DNA of 64,000 bases from Bdellovibrionota bacterium (GTDB lineage: Bacteria > Bdellovibrionota > UBA1018 > CAIPTA01 > JAALKR01): contig CBDBMJ010000001.1 of NCBI GenBank assembly GCA_965207455.1, forward strand, positions 960,001 through 1,024,000, given 5' to 3'. The stretch's first letter is position 1, and each line of letters opens with the position of its first letter. The notes beneath the pieces are model-generated. The model was not told the DNA's origin, did not search any database, and was given only the letters and a program-made list of their open reading frames with translations. Position numbers and translations under genes: made by a program. This document shows, in pieces, positions 9,956 to 64,000 of the stretch.

Positions 9956-10287
9956 GCATCCACCTCCTCTATCCTACAGCGCAAAGGAAACTCATACTTC
10001 TTTGCATGTTCCTGCACCTGATCTGCCTTGGTTTCGGCAATTTCTTTGGAATACTGACCACAAAGGCCTTTCCCTTTTTCATGTACCTGCAACATAATTT
10101 CCGTAGCCTCTAGCTCTGTCTTCTGAAAAAATACTACTAGAACATCCACCACAAAGTCCATGGGCGTAAAGTCATCATTTAAAATAAATACCCCATATGA
10201 AGAAGGTCTTGCCACCCTCTCTTTGACTGCTGTAGTTCCCTCGCTTTGGGGTCGGCTTGTTTTTTTATCGTTATGTGTCATATTCAT
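9952..10287 (-). CDS. clpS: Clp protease adaptor ClpS
   Basis: ILNDDFTPMDFVV, MLQVHEKGKG, FPLRC; overlaps the clpA start. Confidence 0.95.
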   Translation of the reverse strand: MNMTHNDKKTSRPQSEGTTAVKERVARPSSYGVFILNDDFTPMDFVVDVLVVFFQKTELEATEIMLQVHEKGKGLCGQYSKEIAETKADQVQEHAKKYEFPLRCRIEEVDA

Positions 10288-10409
10288 ACTCAGTATACAA
10301 TAAATGCCTCAAGTACGCCATGCTTGATAAAAATAGACTGCTAATGGCCGCTTAAAAGTATTATACATTGAGCGAGAAATGGTGTATGCAACGTTTACGG
10401 TAGGTTTTT

Positions 10410-11390
10410 ATGTTTTTTGAAGGTCCAGAAAAAAAAATTGAACTCCATATTTCCACCACAGAGCCTTCTCTGCGTGGTTGGGGCTATCCCTTCTGGGAAA
10501 GCGTGGTGAAGAAGGCAAAAGCCACTGTGCTTTCTAAAATATCCAATGAAAATTGTGATGCTTATCTTTTGTCTGAATCCAGTTTATTTGTCTATGATCA
10601 TAAAGTACTAATCATCACCTGCGGCTCCACCACCTTAGTGTATTCCTTGCTAGAGGTTCTTGAGCGTATTCCTCACCACACCATAGAATTTTTATCCTTT
10701 GAGCGAAAAGATGAAAGTTATCCTCAGCTACAGGCCACAAATTTTGAAAAAGATGTGGAGATTTTACAAAAAAAAATAGATGGAAATAGTCTGTACTTGG
10801 GCAGTCCCGAGGGACGGCATATAGCACTTTTCTATTTAAACAAAACCTATTCTCCTCCCACAGAAGACATAACCATAGAGGTGCTTATGAGTGGCATTGG
10901 AGAGAACTCAAAAAAGATTTTCTCCCTAGGACCGGATGCTATTACAGCAAAAGAATTACGGAAAAAAAGTGGCTTAAATGATCTTATTCCAGGCTTTACC
11001 ATAGATGATCACCTTTTTAACCCCTGTGGTTATTCCTTGAATGCAATCCAAGGTGCCTATTACTATAGTATTCATGTTACCCCTCAAGATCCTGGATCCT
11101 ATATAAGCTTTGAAACAAATTACCCCTTTCCTGTAAAAAACAACCCATCTTCTATTGAGAATACATTGAACAAACTGTTTTCCATCTTTACACCGAAATC
11201 CTACAATCTCCTTTGTTTTCATAAAAACCCATTATTTAAAGTAGCTCAACATAAAAACTTTGAACTCCATGAAGAAATTTTAAAAAAATTAGGGTGCGGC
11301 TATTATATTCATTTTTACGACTATGCACGAACTATGGAGCTACCTGTGCAAAAAGATGTAGCTGCCTTTCAATTGGAGGAATTGTCTTGA
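10410..11390 (+). CDS. speD: S-adenosylmethionine decarboxylase proenzyme, eukaryote-like long form
   Basis: FEGPEK, YLLSESSLFV (pyruvoyl self-cleavage site), TCG, FNPCGYSLN, IHVTPQ, YISFETN; adjacent to spermidine synthase. Confidence 0.9.
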   Translation: MFFEGPEKKIELHISTTEPSLRGWGYPFWESVVKKAKATVLSKISNENCDAYLLSESSLFVYDHKVLIITCGSTTLVYSLLEVLERIPHHTIEFLSFERKDESYPQLQATNFEKDVEILQKKIDGNSLYLGSPEGRHIALFYLNKTYSPPTEDITIEVLMSGIGENSKKIFSLGPDAITAKELRKKSGLNDLIPGFTIDDHLFNPCGYSLNAIQGAYYYSIHVTPQDPGSYISFETNYPFPVKNNPSSIENTLNKLFSIFTPKSYNLLCFHKNPLFKVAQHKNFELHEEILKKLGCGYYIHFYDYARTMELPVQKDVAAFQLEELS

Positions 11391-12262
11391 AATCAAATCT
11401 CATGGTAACAGAAGTTGTTGAGGATTTTATGAAAATCAGCTATCATGCAGAAAAAATTCTTTTCTCTGATAAAAGCGAATTTCAAAAAGTGGAGATTGTA
11501 CAAACTAAAAAGTTTGGTCGTATGCTATTTAACGATAATCTTTTAATGATTTCTGAATTGGACGAACATATTTATCACGACATGATTGCCCATGTACCGA
11601 TTTTCACTCACCCCAATCCCCGATCCGTTCTTATTATTGGAGGAGGTGATGGAGGCACGCTAAGAGAAGTGCTCCGCCATAAAAATATAGATGAAGTGGT
11701 AATGGTAGAGATTGACAAAATGGTAGTGGATGCTTGCAAGAAATATATCCCACAAACATCGGCATCTATGGATAACTCGCGAGCCCAAGTGCTCATCGAT
11801 GATGGTGTGCAATACATGAGCCAAACTGAAAAACAATTCGACCTTATTATTATAGATTCCACAGACCCCATTGGACCAGCAACTCCTCTTTTTGGTAAAG
11901 AGTTTTATAAAAATGTAAATCGAGTACTAAGGGATGATGGAATTGTGGTTGCCCAAGGAGAATCTCCCCATTATTGTACAGAAATTCAACGTTCTTTATT
12001 AAAAATACAATCTGAAATTTTCCCTCTATGTCATGTGTATAACTTCACAAATTTGACCTATCCTGGTGGACTATGGAGCTTTACCCTATCATCTAAAAAA
12101 TATAGCCCTATCAAAGATGTCAGTTTTAATCGAATAGAGGAGAGTGGATTGGATTTTTCCTACTACAGCTATCTTGTACATAAAGCGAGTTTTTGCTTAC
12201 CCAACTTTATGCTAAAAAACCTTTCCGACTTCCTCACACCAGTTGAAAAAAATAAATTTTAG
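11387..12262 (+). CDS. speE: Spermidine synthase (polyamine aminopropyltransferase)
   Basis: VLIIGGGDGG, IIIDSTDP, TYPGGLW; probable TTG start overlapping the speD stop, with GGAGG at 11375. Confidence 0.93.
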   Translation: MKSNLMVTEVVEDFMKISYHAEKILFSDKSEFQKVEIVQTKKFGRMLFNDNLLMISELDEHIYHDMIAHVPIFTHPNPRSVLIIGGGDGGTLREVLRHKNIDEVVMVEIDKMVVDACKKYIPQTSASMDNSRAQVLIDDGVQYMSQTEKQFDLIIIDSTDPIGPATPLFGKEFYKNVNRVLRDDGIVVAQGESPHYCTEIQRSLLKIQSEIFPLCHVYNFTNLTYPGGLWSFTLSSKKYSPIKDVSFNRIEESGLDFSYYSYLVHKASFCLPNFMLKNLSDFLTPVEKNKF

Positions 12263-13000: not shown

Positions 13001-14128
13001 TTATTGAGCTAAACGAATTACATTTTTTTCCACATCGATGAGCAATATGGAACAATCCTGAGGTAATCGAGAATGGGCTTGCTTTAAAGCAAAATTCAAC
13101 TCGCTAATAATTGTCTCTGGATCTTGTATCTGTATGGTTTTAAAAAAATCTGAAAACTGCTGTCCTATCCCTTCATCAAAACCATCGGATCGAATAATTA
13201 AGCGATCTGCTGGATTGAGGCAAAGAGTATTAGAGTTCAATTGTACTTCATTCACTTTTCGAAAAAGATTATTTTCTCCTTGGTGGAAATACTGTCTATC
13301 TCCATTCTCATCTTGGTGTTCTAGAAATATATTCCCACGAACCACATACTCCATATTATATGTTCTTTTATCAATCACTCCATAGAAAATAGAAAATCCA
13401 TCATTTTCTTTCATGGAATCTTGTATTGATTGATGGAGATATGAAACTGTAGCTCTTGGATCACTAAATTCTCCATTTTTGAGATTTGCGGGAAGAGTCA
13501 TCATGGAATACAAAAAAGCAGAGGACAGCCTATAACTAGAGAAATCCACAAGCAAAATACCCACATTATTTTTTCCCTTAAATTCAAAAACATCAAAATA
13601 ATCTCCTCCACTACGAAGTCCACTCCAATATTTTCCACTCACACTTAAACCATTGATAGGAGGAAAAGTATTTTTAATGAAATGCCGTTGGATTTTTTGA
13701 GCGAAAAGAATATCTTCTTCCATCTTCTGTATCACCTCAGTAATATTTTCTCCACCAATTTGATGTAATAATTTAAAATTATAATGCCAACGAATACAGT
13801 TTAGAAGCTCCAATCTTCGGAATGGGGAAGTAATAATATCATCCACAATACCTTCATTTAAAAGCAAAGGAAGGTTATCTCTATTTAAATTATCATTTAG
13901 TAATAAAAAAAATGTAGGTCGATTTTCCTTAGGTAAAAAATTACTAACCTGTTCAGCTATTCCTTCTTCTGCAATAATAATATCTGGCTTTTCTGATTCC
14001 AATTGCTCCTTCATCTTTCTAATATTCTTAGAAATTCCAATACAATTAATAGGACAATTATTTGCTAGCTTTTCTATTTCTGTATATAATTCTTCTGGAA
14101 TCACTGCTAATTTCAGTACTTCTTGCAC
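13001..14128 (-). CDS. PP2C/SpoIIE-family Ser/Thr phosphatase with degenerate receiver-like N-terminus
   Basis: AQKIQ, SGGDYFDV, SDGFDE, QDCSILLI motifs. Confidence 0.8.
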   Translation of the reverse strand: MQEVLKLAVIPEELYTEIEKLANNCPINCIGISKNIRKMKEQLESEKPDIIIAEEGIAEQVSNFLPKENRPTFFLLLNDNLNRDNLPLLLNEGIVDDIITSPFRRLELLNCIRWHYNFKLLHQIGGENITEVIQKMEEDILFAQKIQRHFIKNTFPPINGLSVSGKYWSGLRSGGDYFDVFEFKGKNNVGILLVDFSSYRLSSAFLYSMMTLPANLKNGEFSDPRATVSYLHQSIQDSMKENDGFSIFYGVIDKRTYNMEYVVRGNIFLEHQDENGDRQYFHQGENNLFRKVNEVQLNSNTLCLNPADRLIIRSDGFDEGIGQQFSDFFKTIQIQDPETIISELNFALKQAHSRLPQDCSILLIDVEKNVIRLAQ

Positions 14129-49613: not shown

Positions 49614-50900
49614 TTATGGAGTTTCTACTGGAAAAGCTGGAATTGAAATAGCTATGGTGCTGCAAAAAACGCTACCACATTTGCTAAGTGTAGAAAAGCC
49701 TAGCTGGTTATAAGTGTTACTTCCCCAGCATTTTATATTTCCACTATTTAAAAGTACGCAGGAGTGAGCAATTCCAAAAGCAATTTGACTTACATCATTT
49801 AAATCAAAAACATCAACTGGTATTAAACTATCTGTGGTGCTATTATTACCCAATTCTCCATAATTATTATTTCCCCAGCACTTCACAGTACCTGCTTCAT
49901 TGATACCAGTGGTGTTGGTATCATCAACTAGAGCTGCGCAGGTGTAACTTCCTCCCAAAGCAATTTGACTTACACCACTTAAACCCGAAACATCCACTGA
50001 TGTTGGACTATTTGTGGTGCTATTGTTGCCCAACTGCCCAGAACTATTAGATCCCCAGCATTTCACTGTTTTATCCTCTAAAATTGCACAGGAGTGTATA
50101 CCATTCAAGTCGATTTTACTTACATTGCTTAAATCCAGAGGAGGAACGGTATCACTAGGATCAGGATCAGGAAGCTTAACAGCAACTGGTGTTAAACTTT
50201 GTGTTGTACTATTATTACCCAACTGCCCAGAACTATTATATCCCCAGCATTTCACTGTTTTATCATTTAAAACTGCGCAACTGTGATACCTTCCTAAGGA
50301 AATTTGACTTATACCACTTAAACTTGAAATATCAATTGGTACTGGACTCTGTGTTGTACTATTATTACCCAGTTGCCCATAACCATTATATCCCCAGCAC
50401 TTTACAGCTCCAGTACTTAAACGTGCGCAGCCGTGAGAATCTCCTAAAGAAATTTGACTTACATCGCTTAAACCAGAAACATCAACCGGTGTTGAACTCT
50501 GTTCTGTAGTATTATTACCCAATTGCCCATAAACATTATCTCCCCAGCATTTCACTGTTTTATCATTTAAAACTGCACAGGAGTGCTGGTACCCTAAGGA
50601 AATTTGACTTACACCACTTAAACCCGAAACATCAACTGGTGTTAAACTATTATTATCGCTTTCACCATTACCCAACTGACCCTTCCCATTATTTCCCCAG
50701 CATTTCACACTGCCATCATTTAAAACTGCGCAGGTGTGATAATACCCTAAAGCAATTTGTCTAACGTCTTTTGGATTTCCTGTTAGCACACTCTCTTCTT
50801 CAAGAATTACCTCTTCTCCACCACACCCAATCAGTGCAATCATGAAAAAAAAAGCTGTATATATATTTTTTCTAAAAAGTAATACTTTTAATAAATGCAT
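49614..50900 (-). CDS. RCC1/BLIP-II repeat beta-propeller lipoprotein
   Basis: Seven ~51-aa repeats QIxLGxxHxCAxLxDxTVKCWGxNxxGQLG; lipobox ALIGC; start uncertain. Confidence 0.9.
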   Translation of the reverse strand: MHLLKVLLFRKNIYTAFFFMIALIGCGGEEVILEEESVLTGNPKDVRQIALGYYHTCAVLNDGSVKCWGNNGKGQLGNGESDNNSLTPVDVSGLSGVSQISLGYQHSCAVLNDKTVKCWGDNVYGQLGNNTTEQSSTPVDVSGLSDVSQISLGDSHGCARLSTGAVKCWGYNGYGQLGNNSTTQSPVPIDISSLSGISQISLGRYHSCAVLNDKTVKCWGYNSSGQLGNNSTTQSLTPVAVKLPDPDPSDTVPPLDLSNVSKIDLNGIHSCAILEDKTVKCWGSNSSGQLGNNSTTNSPTSVDVSGLSGVSQIALGGSYTCAALVDDTNTTGINEAGTVKCWGNNNYGELGNNSTTDSLIPVDVFDLNDVSQIAFGIAHSCVLLNSGNIKCWGSNTYNQLGFSTLSKCGSVFCSTIAISIPAFPVETP

Positions 50901-51055
50901 TTGTAAATATCCTTTGTTTATAACTACCCTTTCGGAACATAGTGGCAATCCATTAATGAAAAATGAATTAAAAAAATTAAAGGTTAAAAAAGCAGGTTTT
51001 TTAAAGAGTGATTTTAAAACATGTATTAGGCTTGAAAGTAATCTTAATGCTTTAA

Positions 51056-51373: not shown

Positions 51374-52162
51374 CTACCTGTGTATATTTCCCTCTCCATC
51401 ATCTAGTTTTCTGGTGCATTTGTTTTTAAGTTCATACCAGCCCTTACGAAGACAAACATAGCCACAAGTACCTGTATAGCGAGGGGCACAGCGACCAACG
51501 GAATCAAAAGTTTTCGTATTAGTGGGTAGAATACAATTAGATTTAACTGTTGAATGACAAAGCATATATTCCTGAGTAACAACCCATGAAGTTCCTACGG
51601 GAATCTTGCGACATTCATTTTTAAGTTCAGACCAACCCCTATCAGTACAACCATAACCGCAAACACCTCTATAGCCAGAAGCACAGCGACCAGAGGAGTA
51701 AGCAAAATCAGTAGTAAATAAGGTGCAATTAGATAGTACAGCTTTTTCACAAGAAAACTTACTAGGGGGAGGCTTACGGCAAGTATTTTTAAGTTTAGAC
51801 CACTGATCATCCTCGCAAGTATAACTGCAACTGCCTTCATAACCGATAGCGCAAAAACCAGAGAAACCATCAGATCTGGATGGCCATGTAAGGTTGCAGT
51901 TGTCTTTTTTCAAGTGAGGACAGGAAGGCGATGAATCCGATGGTGTCAGAGTAACCTCTAGACCATTCAGCAAATAAGGAGCATGTGCAGTAGCAAATAA
52001 AGAGCAACTAGATTGAGTTTTGGTCGGGCAGACTAAGGAAGGAGAGCCTGAAATTCCATTGGCTGTAGTGGACAGCATTATTAGGGGCAATGCAAGGATG
52101 AGGCATAATTCCTGTTGTTGGAAGAAAAGAAAGGGCTTTAAAAATAAGTACTTTTTTTCCAT
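51374..52162 (-). CDS. Secreted Cys-rich protein with three tandem repeats
   Basis: Three copies of C..NCxL...GxCAxxYxGxCxYxC...WxxLKNxC. Confidence 0.7.
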   Translation of the reverse strand: MEKKYLFLKPFLFFQQQELCLILALPLIMLSTTANGISGSPSLVCPTKTQSSCSLFATAHAPYLLNGLEVTLTPSDSSPSCPHLKKDNCNLTWPSRSDGFSGFCAIGYEGSCSYTCEDDQWSKLKNTCRKPPPSKFSCEKAVLSNCTLFTTDFAYSSGRCASGYRGVCGYGCTDRGWSELKNECRKIPVGTSWVVTQEYMLCHSTVKSNCILPTNTKTFDSVGRCAPRYTGTCGYVCLRKGWYELKNKCTRKLDDGEGNIHR

Positions 52163-52879: not shown

Positions 52880-55800
52880 CGAGTACATACTTCATCTATA
52901 GTTTTCCCCTTGTTATGATAGGCCTCAAAAGAAACTTTTTCTATTCTAAGCACTCCCACTATTAATTCTAAAGAGTATTTCATAGAAGACTCCATACGGT
53001 TAAGAATTTTCTCAATAGATTTTTCATACATTCTTGCTTTTGATCCGTCTAAAGTCTCCACAGCCGCAAGTAATGTGGTGCGAATCTCTTGCAGATCTGC
53101 TGTCATAGACTTAAAGATTTCCTTCATGCTATCAAGGGATATCAAGGGATATAGTTGAGCTATAGTCTTCTCCTTCATGTTCATTAACAAAATAATTAAT
53201 TGAAGGGAAATTACCTTTTCTGCATTTAACGGCTGACTTTTCAAAGATACTCCATAATATTTCAAATTTTTCAGAGAATTTTTTTGTTGTAGCATCATAG
53301 TTATGTATATCATTGTCTTTTATCTCTGTTGACATGTTTTGTAAATCTTTATAAATTGTTCTTAAAACTTCTTTGAGATAGTACTTTACTTCAAAAAACA
53401 TGGAGTATAGATAACTTGATTCTACTTTATCTCTATTGATTTTTTTTGGATCCAGCATCCCTGAATAGTATCCTCCTGGACCTGGATTACTCTCTGAACA
53501 ATCTATCCCTAAAGGGTAAAAACCAAACAATGCTTTTCGAAATTTTCTTTTAGAGCCTTCTTGTTTTATTAAAGCATCACATTTCACCTTATCATTGGGA
53601 ATTTCCACATTATAATTCCACCATAAGCTAAATCGATTCTTAGCGCTACAGTAAGAATATTTTTTATAAGGAAAAACATCATTCTCAAGTGACTTGTCAA
53701 GATCGCAATCATCCTTTCCTTCACAAGAAAGCAATTCCTTGTCACAATACATTCTTGAACCTAACTCATTCAAAAAGAAATCTATATTGTCATGGATAAC
53801 TGCTGATATACTGCTATAGTGTCTTTTTTTGTCAGAAAAATACCAATGATAATCTCCATCAACGCTAGGGAGAACAAAACGACTCTTAGTAGAACCCCTG
53901 CGGCTACAAGGATCAGCCTTTATGTTGGGAAGCAGGGAGGGAGGACGAAATTCTATATCTTGTGCAAAGGAGGCATCAACGGAATCCTTGATTTTTTTTG
54001 GCCCACAAACCATGCTAAGAAAAAGAGATTCACTTAAAGATTTTGATTTGACAACTCCTGAAAGTATATTGTATTTAGAGAAACAATCTTTTTTCTCTTC
54101 CTTAAGATATTTATCTGGATTATATGAAGTGGATTTGCCATATTCCTCCTAAAATTGATTGAGTTTTATGCTCCGCAGGGCAGTAATTTCCTTCTTTTGC
54201 TTCATTCAATTTTTTTAAGTATTGTCTTACATAACTATCACTTGCCTCAGGAAAACCTAATATCTCATATGCTGGATAAAAAAGACAATCTATTGACTCA
54301 AATTTACTTTCTTTGCATTCTTCAAATGCGTTAGTTTTTTGAATTTGTTTTGCTAAGGTAAGCACACCTTCAGCAAGTTTCTCTCTATTCTTTATAGCGA
54401 GAGAATCTTTAATTTTTTTTATTTTTTTATACGTTGGATTGCTTGTAATCCATGGAGAGGATCGTGTAAAAGAATTTAGAGATTGCTTCAAGAAAGTTGA
54501 AGCCATTAAAATCCGGCACTGCTTCTCAAAACCTATTGGAGAGGATGAGTCTAAGGTGATTGAATAATTAGCTTTAGTCAAGGCGGGGTATGCTTCTCTT
54601 AAACCTATATTCAATTTTTCAATATGTTTTTCTCCACAGTTATCCAAACTCAGATCACAAGATTTTACAACATGATATTTTTCAAAAAGAGAGACTAACT
54701 GCTTTCTTGTTATATTCACTGTTTCTTTATTTCCATCTATTCTCCATGCATGCTTATTTCGTTTAGAAACTTTTAGCTCATTTTCATAAAAATTTCGAAT
54801 ATAAAACGTATGTTCGTCTGGAAACCTAATCGATTTTATAGAGTAATCTGATAATCTCTTTTTTTCTCCTATTTTTTCACAAATTGCTATATCAGGCTTT
54901 TCATCTATTCTTCCCAAATAACCTTTTCCCTGTTCACTATCAATATTCAGATATTTATATGCTTTTTTTTGGTAATAACCTTCTTGATCATAAGGTAATT
55001 CTCTGATTGTGTCTATGGGGTTAACTCTCTCCGCACTCATAAATTTAGGTATTGATTCATTGAGGCTTTCCCCATCTTTAGGTGGATTCTTTTCTATATA
55101 ATCTACATACTTTGTAATAAAATCGCCGTAAAAACTCGATGTTTGTTCACTAACAACATTAAAGTGAGACATATAGTTCTCATACTGGTAGTAAGTATTC
55201 TGCTCTTGCTCTATTAACGAACCATGCCACGCAGACTGATATTCAATAAAATCTTCCACATTATTATAAAAATCATGAATGCTTGTTTGAGTTGAAGTGG
55301 GTGCTGTAGCCTTGGCAGGTTCATTCATACTATAGAGTACACTAGATGATGAACTAGGCTTTTCTTTCGAGAGCTCACGAGTAAGTTCTAAAACTTCATC
55401 AAGTTTTCTTTTGCTATTTCCTACATACAAAGCATCAACCTTAGTTCCCAAATAGTTAGCACCACCTTCAGTTTCAAACATCCATCCTAAAAAAAAGAAA
55501 ATATGCCATATCGACTGCCCAATCATTGCCACCGTTGTGGCAGCTGGATGAAAGGGAAGAGTAAATAAAGTTATATTTTTAATTTTTGACCATACCGCTA
55601 GATGCTTAGAAAGAAATGAAACTTTCTTTCCTCCCCTAAGAGATGATATGGCACCGGTAGTTCCATGGGCTAGACCTGCAGCTGTTAAAATATGTACAAC
55701 ATCTACCCCCAAATGGGCAAAAAATTTTCCATTCTTAAACTTCTTGTACAATGCGGCGCATTCAGCTAGTTGTTGATCTTTATCCGTTTTTGACACATAG

Positions 55801-56708
55801 GGAGCCCCTCGCCTACCTTCTTTTATTTCATTTGGATTGGATAAAGCCCCGAAAGTACAATCTTTAATACCCCAACCCACATCTGTAATAATTGATGCTC
55901 CTATAGTTGCAAGCGCCATACCCGCATAAGTATTAAATTTACTCTCAAATAGTCTTTGCATAAAAGTATGGGGGCGAATCAATCCATGAGGCAGGGGTGC
56001 AGTTCGAAGCTGACTATAAGCACCATATAAACTATTTATAAAAATAAAGTTAAAGAAATGAAAAGTAGATCTTGCATCTGTTAACATTTCCAATTCAGAA
56101 TTAACACAACGAGGATCGGATAAATCCTTCACTTCATGGAAGGCGAAACATACCACATTTCCAGCAGCAAAAAATAGCAAAACCTCCAAGGGAAAGCGAC
56201 CTATTGTTCTTTTTAGGACTACGCCTTTTCCATACTTAATTTTTTGCTCTTCTTTAATAAGTTTAGAATAATATTCTCCAATTGTTTTTTGTATATTCCC
56301 AAGCACTGAAAGCTCTGATAGACTAAGAGATCGTTCTAACAGCGAGAAATCTTCCTTTGCTCCCTTTATTTGTTCTATTTTTTTTCTCAGTCTTTTCAGT
56401 AATCTTTTCTCCAGAGGAGCAAGGACAGGACTATTACGCTCCATCTCTTCTGCTAACGTAAATATTGTTATTGCTTGACTATTCCTATGACTATTCACAT
56501 TTTGTTCTAGATCATTCTCTTTTATAATTCCTTGTAATTTTTCGAATGCATCTCTGAAAATTTCTTCATCGTCCTTAGTGCTGGGCCTACGATCTTTTGA
56601 AGTTTTTGTGATCTTTGAAAATTTAGAAGAAGTAGAGTATAGCGCTGAAGTGCAGGAAGTGGAAAATATAATAAGAGCCAGAAATAAACACAGCTTTCGT
56701 TTCATCAA
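52876..56708 (-). pseudogene. Large lipoprotein-like gene (~1270 aa) broken into three ORFs by two frameshifts
   Basis: One extra base near 54150 (ATT TTA G-GAG GAA TAT) and a 10-bp tandem duplication ATCAAGGGAT at 53131-53150; correcting both joins ORFs 54120..56708, 53132..54013 and 52876..53313. Confidence 0.7.
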
Positions 56709-60943: not shown

Positions 60944-61843
60944 TTAGTGAAGAACTTTAGAAGATAGATCTAGTTTAATATCTTTGATAATTTTTTTTAA
61001 AAATTTAGTCAAAATTCTATTTGATGGCCAAACAGCGGAGATATTGTAGGGGTGGGAACATTCTTTTTCTAAAATAGGAGTAATTTGATCCCTGTACAGA
61101 TGATAATAATAATCGGGAAGTAGTGAAAACATATCGCTATTTTTAAGTGCGTTGATACAAATAGAAACATTATCGTGAAGAAGTTGTGGAGCTTGGGTCA
61201 CTCCTAACTTTAAAAGAGATGGATGTTTTTCACAATTATCTATTCCCTGGAAAGATTTTGGTAAAGTCAAAGGGTACTCAGTAAGTGCTTTTACTTTTGC
61301 CTTATTAGATAGCTTAAGAATTGGGTGGTTTTTCCTTACAAAAATGTGCATTTTTCCTTCATATAAAATTTCAGTTTCAATTTTTATATTTTCTTGAGGG
61401 GAGAAACAAAAGCCTATATCACGCTGACCATTTATGAGTGTCTTAACAACATTGGCAGAACGTAATGAGAAAATTTCAGTGCTAACCTTTGTATGTTTTG
61501 CCAAGCTTTTACTCAAAATAGGAGTGACAAGAAAATCAGCAAGGACGTGAGTTGCTACAATCTTATAATGGCCTTGATGATCAACATTATCCGATGTAAT
61601 TTCGTCTTTTAATGAATTAAATCTTGCAAGTATTTCTTCCACATGTTCAGCAAAATATTTTCCATGTGCTGTAAGAAAGATATTTTTGCCTTTTTTTTCA
61701 AATAATGGACGACCTATTTCTTCTTCAAGAAATGAAATACTATGACTAATGGCACTTGGTGAGATGCCCAATATTTTTGAAGCTTTCCCAATATGCTCAT
61801 TTTTGGCTGTCTCAAGAAAATAATTTAGTTGGTCTATCTTCAT
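60944..61843 (-). CDS. LysR-family transcriptional regulator
   Basis: QLNYF...ASKILGISPSAISHSISFLEEEIGRPLF...LTAHG HTH; divergent from the downstream operon. Confidence 0.93.
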   Translation of the reverse strand: MKIDQLNYFLETAKNEHIGKASKILGISPSAISHSISFLEEEIGRPLFEKKGKNIFLTAHGKYFAEHVEEILARFNSLKDEITSDNVDHQGHYKIVATHVLADFLVTPILSKSLAKHTKVSTEIFSLRSANVVKTLINGQRDIGFCFSPQENIKIETEILYEGKMHIFVRKNHPILKLSNKAKVKALTEYPLTLPKSFQGIDNCEKHPSLLKLGVTQAPQLLHDNVSICINALKNSDMFSLLPDYYYHLYRDQITPILEKECSHPYNISAVWPSNRILTKFLKKIIKDIKLDLSSKVLH

Positions 61844-61951: not shown

Positions 61952-63682
61952 ATGAAATTAATAAGATACAGCAGTGATAGTATGGGCAAGGCCTATGGAA
62001 TTAGTTGTTCCAATGACTTGCATCCAAATAATTCATGCGGCGCATCTTTTTTTCCAAGCTTATGTAGAGTGGAACAGGGTGGTGAAACGCTGATTCATTC
62101 ACATTATGAAACTGAAATTTTTATTGTCACAAAAGGAAGGGCTCTTGCTGTTGTTGAGGGTGAAGAGGTCTTCCTTGATCCCAATGATCAATTGCTTGTT
62201 CATCCCTTTGAGGAACATATTATAAAAAATATAGGGTCTGAGCCTCTTGAGTTCTTTGCTATTTATTCAAGAGTTAACTATAAGAATGATACTAAAAAGA
62301 GCAATACTCTCATCATTTCGGCTCCTCCCACACCCAATGGAGGTCTCCACTTAGGACATCTATCTGGTCCCTATCTTTCAGCAGATATTTTAAAAAGATT
62401 TTTATCATTAAGAGAAAAAAAGGTTAAGCATTTCTCATCGACGGATGACAATCAAACCTACACATTTAAAATGGCTCGTGACTATGGCAAAGATCAAGAA
62501 GAGATATTGCAAAAATATCATGAGATTATTTGCTCTGATTTACGTCAGGCCTCAATAGAAGTTGATGATTTTTTTAGCACATCTAAAGATGACAATTATA
62601 AAATTCATGTTAAAGAAAAATTTGAACAATTAAAGAAGAGTGATGCTGTTTCTATAAAAAAAATAGAGTTTCCTTTTTTAGATGGTTATAAATATGAAGC
62701 TTTTTTAGAAGGAATCTGTCCTGATTGTCAGAAAAAATCTTGTGGGCAATGCTGCGAATCCTGTGGATTTGTTGGTGAAGCAAGTGATTTTAATAGAAGC
62801 AATTTAAAATCAAAGGAATGTTTAACTTTAGATTTAAGTGAATTTAGAGAATTTCTTAAACAGTATCATAACAGTTTAAACCTTCAGGGCGAAGTTGCTA
62901 AAAGAGCAAAAAAATGGAGAAGAAATCTAAGTTCTTTCACACTTAATTATCCTGAAAATATTGGAATTGATGGAATGCATGTCTGGTGTGAAATGGCATT
63001 TGGAATGCTTTATCAAATCAATAAATATTCAGACAAAGTTGATGAACTTATTTATTGCTTTGGTATTGACAATTCTTATTACTATTTAGTTTTGATACCT
63101 TCAATTTTAAAAGCATTGGGCGAAGAAGGGAAACTTCCTAATAAAGTAATTATTAATGGATTTTATAATTTAAATGATCAAAAATTTTCAACGTCTAAGG
63201 GACATGCAATATGGGTGAAAGATATTGATAAAAGTGAGTGTGACAATCTAAGGCTTTATCTTTCATTGTTTAGACCTGAAGGAGCAGTTGGAAACTATAA
63301 TCATGATGAATTTCTAAAATTTTCTAATGAAATGAACTTAAAGCTAAGTCATTTAAGGTCTTTAGAGAAAAGTGAGCTTAATGGTGCATCGTTGATAGAA
63401 GCAGACCATAATTTTTACAAAAAGCTGGTCCGAAAACTTCTTTCACTAGAAAATAGCATGAGCGAAGATTTTTCGCTGAACGAATATGCATCTAACGCGA
63501 TTCAGATCTTGAATGATTATCTCTCATATATTGAATTTAGTGAAGATACATTAGAAAAAAAGAAAATATTTATTCCGCTTATAAAAATGGCTTTTTATCC
63601 AATAATGCCAAACACGTTTGAGCTTTCTGATTTTAATTCTGTTTGGAGCTTAGATTTAAGGAGAAATTTAAATGAGAAATGA
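61952..63682 (+). CDS. Cupin / methionyl-tRNA-synthetase-like didomain protein (putative hydrazine synthetase)
   Basis: N-terminal cupin (HSHYETE...EEH) fused to a class I aaRS core (PPTPNGGLHLGH, CPDC/CESC knuckle, KFSTS); non-canonical STDDNQ and FGIDN motifs. Confidence 0.8.
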   Translation: MKLIRYSSDSMGKAYGISCSNDLHPNNSCGASFFPSLCRVEQGGETLIHSHYETEIFIVTKGRALAVVEGEEVFLDPNDQLLVHPFEEHIIKNIGSEPLEFFAIYSRVNYKNDTKKSNTLIISAPPTPNGGLHLGHLSGPYLSADILKRFLSLREKKVKHFSSTDDNQTYTFKMARDYGKDQEEILQKYHEIICSDLRQASIEVDDFFSTSKDDNYKIHVKEKFEQLKKSDAVSIKKIEFPFLDGYKYEAFLEGICPDCQKKSCGQCCESCGFVGEASDFNRSNLKSKECLTLDLSEFREFLKQYHNSLNLQGEVAKRAKKWRRNLSSFTLNYPENIGIDGMHVWCEMAFGMLYQINKYSDKVDELIYCFGIDNSYYYLVLIPSILKALGEEGKLPNKVIINGFYNLNDQKFSTSKGHAIWVKDIDKSECDNLRLYLSLFRPEGAVGNYNHDEFLKFSNEMNLKLSHLRSLEKSELNGASLIEADHNFYKKLVRKLLSLENSMSEDFSLNEYASNAIQILNDYLSYIEFSEDTLEKKKIFIPLIKMAFYPIMPNTFELSDFNSVWSLDLRRNLNEK

Positions 63683-64000
63683 AAATAACAAATATTCCGC
63701 AATCGTGATTGGCTCAGGCTGCCTTGGCGCAAGTGTTTTTCGATCTTTAAAATTAAAGGGAGTAAGTAAAGTGCTTTTAATTGACAAAAAAAAAGCAGGA
63801 GAAGGAATTAGTGCTCTCAGTGGTGGAATGGTGCGAGTGTTTCATAGAAAAGCTAAAGATAGAATGGCATCTAAGTATAGCCAGAATGTTTTCTATAACT
63901 TAGAAAGAGAAATTGGATTAAATATTTCTAAAGTAGGTTCTCTTTCTATAGTATCCGAAGAAGATATTAGAGATATAAATATTAACGACTTTGAAATCAT
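63672..64000 (+). CDS. FAD-dependent oxidoreductase (DAO/glycine oxidase family), 3'-truncated by the window edge
   Basis: Not in the ORF track. Manual translation: MRNENNKYSAIVIGSGCLGAS...VLLIDK...GEGISALSGGMVR; overlaps the stop of the upstream gene. Confidence 0.8.
   Translation, partial: MRNENNKYSAIVIGSGCLGASVFRSLKLKGVSKVLLIDKKKAGEGISALSGGMVRVFHRKAKDRMASKYSQNVFYNLEREIGLNISKVGSLSIVSEEDIRDININDFEI

Follow-up and report, generated by a model that had tools for sequence, protein, structure and literature searches.

A protein that resembles a methionyl-tRNA synthetase (MetRS) and carries a cupin at its N-terminus is encoded near the end of a 64,000-nucleotide stretch of the genome of a Bdellovibrionota bacterium (GenBank assembly GCA_965207455.1, contig CBDBMJ010000001.1, positions 960,001 to 1,024,000; this whole stretch is called the window below), and the question arises what such a protein makes and with which partners. 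Judged by its sequence, the protein is a hydrazine synthetase (HS) of the Spb40/Tri28/PyrN family and not a translation enzyme. Its gene is probably the first of an operon, complete in itself and under LysR control, by which a small hydrazine metabolite, namely an N-acylated hydrazino acid, would be made and exported. The gene in question is the following.

61952..63682, plus strand: HS, an open reading frame (ORF) with an ATG start and 576 amino acids (aa); predicted zinc cupin at residues ~37-105 and MetRS-like O-aminoacyl-hydroxylamine synthetase at ~120-576, with a single zinc knuckle.

The HS reading frame is preceded by a GGAGG Shine-Dalgarno sequence 6 nt before its ATG, and in Pfam its residues 37-105 match Cupin_2 (E 4.7e-11) and residues 120-460 match tRNA-synt_1g, the class I MetRS catalytic family (E 1.5e-40). 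An earlier note, made on this DNA from its letters alone, had described a cupin fused to a MetRS-like core with HLGH and KFSTS, and besides the two domain matches both motifs can be located in the translation (133-136 and 411-415); HSs have HLGH and KFST(G/S) where HIGH and KMSKS would otherwise stand. The altered substrate motifs that it had pointed to are present as well, STDDNQ at 163-168 and FGIDN at 370-374, at places where the MetG protein of the same genome has GSDEHG and GKDNI. The cupin residues H49, H51, E55 and H89 correspond to His50, His52, Glu56 and His90 of PyrN, the HS of pyrazomycin biosynthesis, which are the residues mutated in PMC8664883. All four are unvaried in an alignment of HS with 24 database relatives, and the cupin pattern HHEH is present in every tabulated row that has a cupin and a correctly called ORF. 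Further positions without variation among the 25 aligned proteins are PPTPNGxLHLGH, D165, Q168, E269, W345, M348, G371, D373, N374 and K411FSTS. With a numbering transferred through a family-profile alignment to the PyrN structure 9VQ4 (chain index + 108; checked on HLGH 147-150 and on Arg390/Asn421/Arg425), the unvaried residues map onto adenylate- and hydroxylysine-binding residues of PyrN that are named in bioRxiv 10.1101/2025.08.22.671884. In the ribose/alpha-amine site FGxDN, the segment F370-G371-I372-D373-N374 takes the positions of PyrN Gly418, Asp420 and Asn421, and the conservation of D373 and N374 hints that hydroxylysine is bound with its alpha-amine free.

Could the protein be a second, divergent MetRS, a housekeeping or resistance paralogue that chances to carry a cupin? 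The tRNA-synt_1g match speaks for it, as do HLGH and KFSTS, which are similar to class I signature motifs, and the fact that MetRS structures rank next in the PDB search. The top matches in this search are PyrN-C (9VQ4/9L8V, E 1.9e-26), the best MetRS being that of P. abyssi (7.4e-23); when a family profile is used the values are 7.6e-111 for PyrN-C vs 2.3e-100 for MetRS. However, the metG models of NCBIfam give HS 118.5-191 bits vs cut-offs of 336-587, so that the equivalog cut-offs are failed (TIGR00398, 118.5 vs 336.35 bits; NF001100, 149.5 vs 587), whereas the genome's own MetG, a separate gene at C1:745 kb (L002 1498-3198, 566 aa; motifs GSDEHG, VWFDAPIGY, GKDNI and KFSKS), clears TIGR00398 with 452.1 bits against the cut-off of 336. 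HS shares 28-34% identity with this MetG across two stretches and is ~30% identical to the named members of the HS family. A maximum-likelihood tree of 82 rows (IQ-TREE in quick mode, LG+G4, supported by the SH-like approximate likelihood ratio test, SH-aLRT, only; rows L050, L054, L067 and L083 are mis-called high-GC ORFs) places HS deep within the HS group and the own MetG on a branch 2.9 long. The substrate pocket is also unlike that of MetG (code ALDGWANH) and agrees with those of HSs, all four catalytic or metal-binding cupin residues of PyrN are kept, and the gene lies in an operon with an N-hydroxylase and a flavin oxidase. What HS has in common with MetG is the Rossmann core, HxGH, K-x-S-x-S, the zinc knuckle and the helical C-terminal bundle; what sets it apart is the N-terminal catalytic cupin and the remodelled pocket. 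The housekeeping-MetRS reading was dropped in view of the failed metG cut-offs, the separate MetG, the pocket, the cupin, the operon and the tree, and a MetRS paralogue is regarded as extremely improbable. The HS identity proposed in the earlier note is thus upheld by the best structure match, the kept PyrN residues, the metG cut-offs and the tree position, and the two checks that it had suggested, for a separate metG and for grouping in a phylogeny, both came out on the side of HS.

With which proteins does HS work? The operon beyond the window was read from 20 kb starting at G000:C1:1020001 of the host genome (locus L004; the window coordinate equals the L004 coordinate + 60000), and together with the divergent gene upstream of HS it comprises the following.

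60944..61843, minus strand: LysR-family regulator, 299 aa (Pfam HTH_1 1.8e-15, LysR_substrate 7.1e-19).

63672 on (L004 3672-4721), plus strand: DAO-family flavin adenine dinucleotide (FAD) oxidase, 349 aa, whose first 109 codons (63672..64000) are inside the window.

L004 4693-6003, plus strand: NbtG-like lysine N6-hydroxylase (NMO), 436 aa (Pfam Lys_Orn_oxgnase 1.3e-12).

L004 5990-6634, plus strand: ORF221, 214 aa, a predicted GNAT-fold acyltransferase of an unannotated family; its start, M8, was picked by alignment.

L004 6637-7476, plus strand: predicted DMT-fold (EamA-like) transporter, a membrane protein of 279 aa.

The LysR gene is separated from the operon by a 108-nt intergenic region. 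The five genes from HS through DAO, NMO and ORF221 to the transporter are joined by junctions of -11, -29, -14 and +2 nt, and rpoZ, clpX and clpP come after them on the other strand. The GxGxxG flavoenzyme that the earlier note had seen coupled to HS is the DAO oxidase: its ATG at 63672 overlaps the end of HS by 11 nt, it bears GSGCLG, and it matches Pfam DAO (PF01266) with E 4.9e-10 for the 109 aa within the window and E 1.3e-23 for the whole 349 aa. The closest solved proteins to this oxidase are sarcosine oxidases (E 6e-5). As to the N-hydroxylase, stated in the note to be outside the window, this is literally so, but the gene begins only 693 nt past the window end (L004 4693), and a look beyond 64000, as the note had recommended, finds it two genes downstream of HS. 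The best solved relative of this protein is 4D7E, described as 'L-Lys monooxygenase' (NbtG; E 2.1e-77, residues 11-421), and lysine is the substrate inferred from its sequence. The carrier protein and ligases that had been expected in the same region did not turn up: no AMP-ligase, carrier protein, nonribosomal peptide synthetase (NRPS) or polyketide synthase (PKS) is present in the unit (20 kb of L004), and the remaining genes are those for the GNAT-fold protein and the DMT transporter. The cluster is therefore much smaller than the note expected, although its proposal that HS marks the start of an s56-p1/triacsin-type cluster stands, with HS, DAO and NbtG-like N6-hydroxylase forming a triad in one operon. 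The AT-rich character of the segment, which it had also remarked on, is confirmed, since the cassette, a 6.5-kb low-GC stretch, has 31.8% GC vs a genome mean of 40.2% (standard deviation 3.2) in 6.6-kb windows, and only 0.55% of 2367 such windows have GC as low. The host genome measures 2.38 Mb in 3 contigs. Scans of promoters and terminators did not rise above shuffled controls (34 vs 30.3 +/- 5.5; 3 vs 3.1).

From the family of HS, its catalytic residues, the gene set, its packing and its recurrence, all of which are observed, we infer by analogy the chemical steps, the amino-acid partner, the acyl donor and acceptor and the direction of transport. The NbtG-like flavin monooxygenase would first hydroxylate L-lysine at N6. 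The MetRS-like domain of HS would then adenylate a small amino acid (likeliest glycine; else alanine or serine) and move it to the N6-hydroxyl group instead of a tRNA, after which the zinc cupin would turn the ester into an N-N bond. The DAO-type oxidase would oxidise the lysine C6-N bond and so release a free hydrazino acid, which would be hydrazinoacetic acid (HAA) if the partner is glycine, along with 2-aminoadipate semialdehyde. Finally, the GNAT-fold protein would acylate the hydrazino acid in the way of Tri31 of the triacsin pathway, and the DMT transporter would export the product. According to PMC11705231 and PMC13274452, Spb38 hydroxylates lysine, Spb40 couples glycine to it and Spb39 cleaves the conjugate to HAA and aminoadipate semialdehyde, and this set of three genes is the source of HAA on the routes to s56-p1, triacsin and N-nitroglycine. 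The MetRS-like domain is described as forming an O-aminoacyl-hydroxylamine via an adenylate, which the zinc cupin rearranges (PMC8664883 and bioRxiv 10.1101/2025.08.22.671884). For the acylation, the model is Tri31, a 25-kDa GNAT protein of the tri26-31 operon by which HAA is acylated on its distal nitrogen with succinyl- and other acyl-coenzymes A (CoA) and not with acetyl-CoA (bioRxiv 10.1101/2021.05.12.443849). Since AMP-ligase, acyl carrier protein (ACP), PKS and NRPS genes are missing from the unit, the hydrazino acid is probably an end product here and not a building block. Another conceivable model of the product, the acylated N-methyl-hydrazinoacetic acid negamycin, was dropped, since nitrite is the origin of its N-N bond and spb-like genes play no part in making it.

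Which amino acid is joined to hydroxylysine? Eight-residue pocket codes have been published for AzsN (Gly, TPDQWMNH), ThzN (Thr, SADQWYGH) and PyrN (Glu, SFVQALNR). The code of HS reads APDQWMNY, identical at 6/8 positions to the Gly code and unlike the Thr and Glu codes, when the Matsuda code is placed on PyrN positions by our own mapping. In HS the pocket would be filled by W345 and M348, and G351 and Y378 stand where PyrN, which uses glutamate, holds the substrate side chain by Arg390 and Arg425. The form xPDQWMNx is shared with AzsN of azaserine biosynthesis and with the enzyme Q8KGM6 of Rhizobium loti/Mesorhizobium (GlyHS), reported as glycine-using; a Microcystis enzyme is reported as serine-using. 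In a table of 82 rows, which covers 81 loci together with HS itself and the MetG of its genome, TPDQWMNH occurs 44 times and APDQWMNY 28 times, in loci that were chosen with patterns covering two code positions and are not an unbiased census. Of the 17 loci from Mesorhizobium, Aminobacter and Bradyrhizobium, a single one deviates from the exact TPDQWMNH (Bradyrhizobium L019, APDQWMNH), and APDQWMNY is common to every locus with the cassette described below. On the pocket residues, glycine is given roughly an even chance of being the partner; alanine or serine would be the lesser, though still substantial, possibility, and any other amino acid seems unlikely.

ORF221, the candidate acyltransferase, has no Pfam or NCBIfam match at default thresholds (none in NCBIfam even at E<=1), and a PDB profile search gives just two matches with E 0.24 and 0.85. 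Its AlphaFold2 (AF2) model has a mean predicted local distance difference test score (pLDDT) of 89.6, and all leading Foldseek matches of the model are GNAT acyltransferases, phosphinothricin acetyltransferases and the tabtoxin resistance protein being among the fold matches. The protein is therefore, as modelled, a member of the GNAT fold. A wide structural search ended in a tie of RimI (Z 15.3, 142 residues), FeeM (2G0B; Z 15.2, 171 residues) and RpaI (6WN0; Z 14.6, 182 residues). With FeeM and the LuxI-type or CoA-dependent acyl-homoserine lactone synthases, a GNAT clan of ~200 aa, the model thus aligns over most of its length; since RimI, an ordinary small acetyltransferase, scores just as high, the fold does not tell an acetyl from a long-chain acyl group, nor a CoA from an ACP donor. 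Sequence matches to FeeM (PF21926) are weak, seen in 6/10 family members with a best E of 0.0016, and all lie far under the gathering cut-off (15.4 vs 27 bits). Atlas neighbours of ORF221 are labelled Acetyltransf_5 or FeeM. There are 120 close relatives, all 'hypothetical' where named, and the family extends to 412 clusters at 50% identity (E<=1e-3); the 146 clusters that were scanned with Pfam gave Acetyltransf_1 in 9, FeeM in 4, Acetyltransf_9 in 3 and Acetyltransf_5 in 2. In the phylum, 16/401 genomes, the own one included, have the protein (E<=1e-10), and among these 401 genomes it was not found outside G000 in families f1-f12, the relatives sample. When every ORF of the 81 other HS loci was searched with a profile of ORF221, matches came from cassette loci only. 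Distant relatives (E 1e-13 to 1e-35) occur in other small operons (L086-L090, in genomes G232, G066, G245, G197 and G047), next to Haem_oxygenas_2 heme-oxygenase-like iron enzymes, or to Asp_Arg_Hydrox-like and pyridoxal phosphate-dependent enzymes, and not to HS, with a divergent LysR gene in one of them; these look like further uncharacterised amino-acid-modifying cassettes.

The membrane protein at the end of the operon reaches 21.7 bits with EamA, under the Pfam cut-off of 28.2, and weak matches of this kind are seen in 3/6 family members. Its AF2 model is an all-helical bundle (pLDDT 78.4), and the leading Foldseek matches are all DMT proteins, namely LicB, the triose-phosphate translocator 5Y78 (TMq 0.76) and 5I20 (TMq 0.75), by which the protein is a DMT-fold transporter as far as the model goes.

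Is the gene set found elsewhere? One scan of species genomes gave 542 HS relatives, and the analysis went on with the 80 best loci, taken from public genomes. A tblastn search with the six proteins found LysR, HS, NMO and ORF221 together in 9/80 loci (L006-L011, L016, L032 and L040), mostly from Bdellovibrio-like metagenome-assembled genomes (MAGs). In all nine a LysR homologue of 32-73% identity lies divergent beside HS. DAO is present in 8/9 (all except L032) and the transporter in 7/9, none being matched in L007 and a fragment at the locus end in L008. The closest locus, L006 of a Bacteriovoracaceae MAG, has the six genes in the same order, and its HS is 51% identical. In the tree the cassette HSs other than that of L032, which is basal, form one clade of 9 with the query (SH-aLRT 100), and closest to this clade stand the HSs from further Bdellovibrio-like MAGs and from Candidatus Uabimicrobium. 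Two chromosomes of the latter, a predatory planctomycete (L022 and L039), carry DAO and an N-hydroxylase near HS and no ORF221. The cassette also varies. L006 has an ordinary GNAT gene (Acetyltransf_1) added after the transporter, and in two cassettes of Bdellovibrio type an S-adenosylmethionine (SAM)-dependent methyltransferase of 260 aa follows right after the GNAT gene (L009 12709-13491 and L040 12665-13447), which implies a methylated variant of the product; in L009 it is followed at 13491-13829 by a small Cupin_3 protein. In L032 of an Elusimicrobia MAG, N-hydroxylase and ORF221 make up one ORF of 652 aa in a single frame (9961-11919, plus strand), and no DAO gene was found in the 16 kb of this locus that were examined. 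Four further hydroxylase-ORF221 fusions of 639-668 aa are present in the protein collection (P0241-P0244).

These variants bear on the role of the GNAT-fold protein, for which two other explanations have to be weighed. According to the first, the initial four steps are the same and the free hydrazino acid is exported, for example as an antimetabolite, and the GNAT protein N-acetylates the toxic hydrazine inside the producer in the manner of phosphinothricin and tabtoxin resistance acetyltransferases. The presence of these very enzymes among the fold matches agrees with such self-protection, the distant ORF221 relatives in amino-acid-modifying operons that lack HS would fit a general acetylase of amino-acid analogues, and the additional Acetyltransf_1 gene after the transporter of L006 points the same way. 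Against this, ORF221 is translationally coupled in the operon and kept in 9/9 cassette loci, and fusion to the first biosynthetic enzyme, seen in 5 cases, is what one would sooner expect of a pathway enzyme than of one that gives resistance. The fold alone cannot part the two roles, and self-protection is held to be a minor possibility.

The fusions raise the second explanation, in which the GNAT protein acts when the hydroxylamine has formed, or else on the backbone of lysine, its substrate being for instance lysine, N6-hydroxylysine or the conjugate of lysine and amino acid joined through N-N. The operon would then yield a hydrazine or hydroxamate that is acylated and still contains lysine, and not a free hydrazino acid in acylated form. 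It is to the N-hydroxylase that ORF221 is fused in L032 and in the four other proteins, and in none to HS or DAO; L032 consists of HS, the fusion and the transporter and is without DAO. Hydroxylase-acyltransferase pairs are, moreover, the rule in hydroxamate siderophore pathways. On the other side, the NMO and ORF221 genes overlap stop to start in every cassette, and a lost stop would fuse them whatever the order of steps; DAO is kept in the 8 other cassette loci out of 9; acylation of N6 would vie with HS for the N-OH group; and the free alpha-amine suggested by D373 and N374 of HS speaks in the same sense. A role at the lysine stage is accordingly considered doubtful.

Acylation of the released hydrazino acid thus stays the preferred role of ORF221, and several points weigh against it or against the rest of the proposed pathway. 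The fusions and the DAO-less L032 fit a hydroxylase-stage role at least as well, and they were given less weight because the two genes are adjacent and overlapping in every cassette, which makes fusion easy. LicB, the top fold match of the transporter, is an importer. PyrN-C leads the true MetRS by only ~3 orders of magnitude in the single-sequence PDB search. The HS code departs from the glycine code at position 1 (T to A) and position 8 (H to Y), the comparison covered the codes of a glycine-, a threonine- and a glutamate-using enzyme, and the preprint's position list, on which the mapping of the code leans, misfits its own example.

Outside the cassette, HS keeps similar company in many loci. 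At E<=1e-15 an NMO-family neighbour is found at 72/81 other HS loci, a DAO-family neighbour at 52/81 and both at 48/81. In most of the rhizobial loci (L015, L017, L019-L038 and L061, from Mesorhizobium, Bradyrhizobium and Aminobacter) the only neighbour from the N-hydroxylase family is a remote one (E ~1e-30), and a clear DAO within 8 kb is mostly lacking, so that the downstream chemistry may differ.

How did the cassette come to this host? The low GC, the patchy spread and the different flanks of L006 together suggest horizontal acquisition. HS was found in 1/40 relatives of the host genome that were searched (33% identity), and this, the GC content and the search of 401 phylum genomes that found ORF221 nowhere but in G000 within families f1-f12 are what the suggestion rests on. 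Of the seven flank proteins, none occurs in any HS locus. An empty insertion site was not shown: of four relatives, G002, G003 and G007 have the flanking PepP and ClpX on separate contigs, and in G001, which is 88% complete, the search for them found nothing. A further-reaching proposal may be made. In it the six genes would suffice, as a minimal pathway that moves horizontally, for a new class of small exported metabolite, an N-acylated hydrazino acid (N-methylated as well in the Bdellovibrio-type versions with the SAM methyltransferase), acylated by the previously unannotated GNAT protein and used by bacterial predators as an antimetabolite or signal towards their prey; both Bdellovibrio-like MAGs and Candidatus Uabimicrobium are members of the HS clade. 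We consider this a speculative and rather improbable extension.

The unit can be set beside the characterised systems. It resembles Spb38-40 (s56-p1) and Tri26-28 (triacsin) of Streptomyces/Kitasatospora in having a lysine N6-hydroxylase, a DAO-type FAD oxidase and a didomain HS in one operon, as in their HAA machinery, and its pocket is glycine-like as judged from 6/8 code residues. With triacsin it also shares a GNAT-type acyltransferase of ~25 kDa in the operon (Tri31 there, ORF221 here), likened by fold and place. It differs in gene order (HS-DAO-NMO here, NMO-DAO-HS there), in lacking AMP-ligase, ACP, PKS and NRPS, in the added DMT transporter and LysR regulator, in an acyltransferase from a family without a Pfam or NCBIfam model, and in its host, which has a small genome of 2.4 Mb and, at the level of the phylum, Bdellovibrio-like relatives. 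The best solved relative of HS, PyrN (9L8V, 9VQ4, 9VQJ and 9VR2), has the same domain plan, and its cupin ligands, HLGH, KFST(G/S), Gly418/Asp420/Asn421, Gln182 and Glu286 have equivalents here. PyrN has two zinc clusters, unlike HS and its four closest relatives, from which the segments of the outer one are missing and in which the inner cluster alone is kept; the number of knuckles varies within the family (bioRxiv 10.1101/2025.08.22.671884). The PyrN pathway reportedly uses a saccharopine-dehydrogenase-like enzyme and not a DAO. AzsN differs from HS by its carrier domain, which is not found here, in addition to the two code positions.

HSs have been called the largest family of N-N-forming enzymes and have been characterised in Gram-negatives, one estimate puts the possible HSs in existence at >1,200, and the enzymes so far listed as identified or assayed include some from Mesorhizobium/Rhizobium loti, Microcystis, Pseudomonas and Bacillus. 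The host is indeed far from the actinomycetes, as the earlier note had stressed; yet this is not new in itself, given these organisms and the 542 relatives. HS belongs to a known and widespread family, and what is known of N-N bond making is unchanged. What is new is the minimal self-contained architecture, the linked unannotated GNAT family, the host group and a pocket code that is the second common one, and the product would be new as well. No report of the cassette was found in the literature searched, the coverage of which excludes Matsuda et al. 2024 (ChemBioChem e202300838; 401 HSs, 13 clades, the 8-residue code). Among the biological routes by which natural products are known to gain N-N bonds, that through HSs is the main one, and the cases with known products come almost all from large actinomycete clusters, in which the hydrazino acid is a mere building block. 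A pathway of this kind could hardly be smaller than the present cassette, with its five enzyme and transport genes and a regulator, and for this reason its product should be simple and easily found by heterologous expression. Finding it would assign a function to the GNAT family (~400 clusters at 50% identity), put the specificity code from the literature to the proof with APDQWMNY and show a use of hydrazine by Bdellovibrio-like bacteria.

Some other features of the surroundings may be recorded. About 11-13 kb past the window end, two paralogous putative lipoproteins are encoded on the minus strand (L004 11301-12251 and 12433-13464), with an Asp/Asn/Ser-rich low-complexity linker and repeated 'DTSxVxxMxxMF' units, in a region with GC of 0.32-0.37. 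Within the window, the minus strand encodes at 49614-50948 a putative lipoprotein of 444 aa with 'VKCWGxNxxGQLGN'-type repeats, which may be RCC1-like, at 51374-52162 a cysteine-rich protein of 262 aa with three internal repeats, and at 54120-56708 a protein of 862 aa with a lipoprotein-like N-terminus, the last two genes sitting in another low-GC stretch (0.31-0.38).

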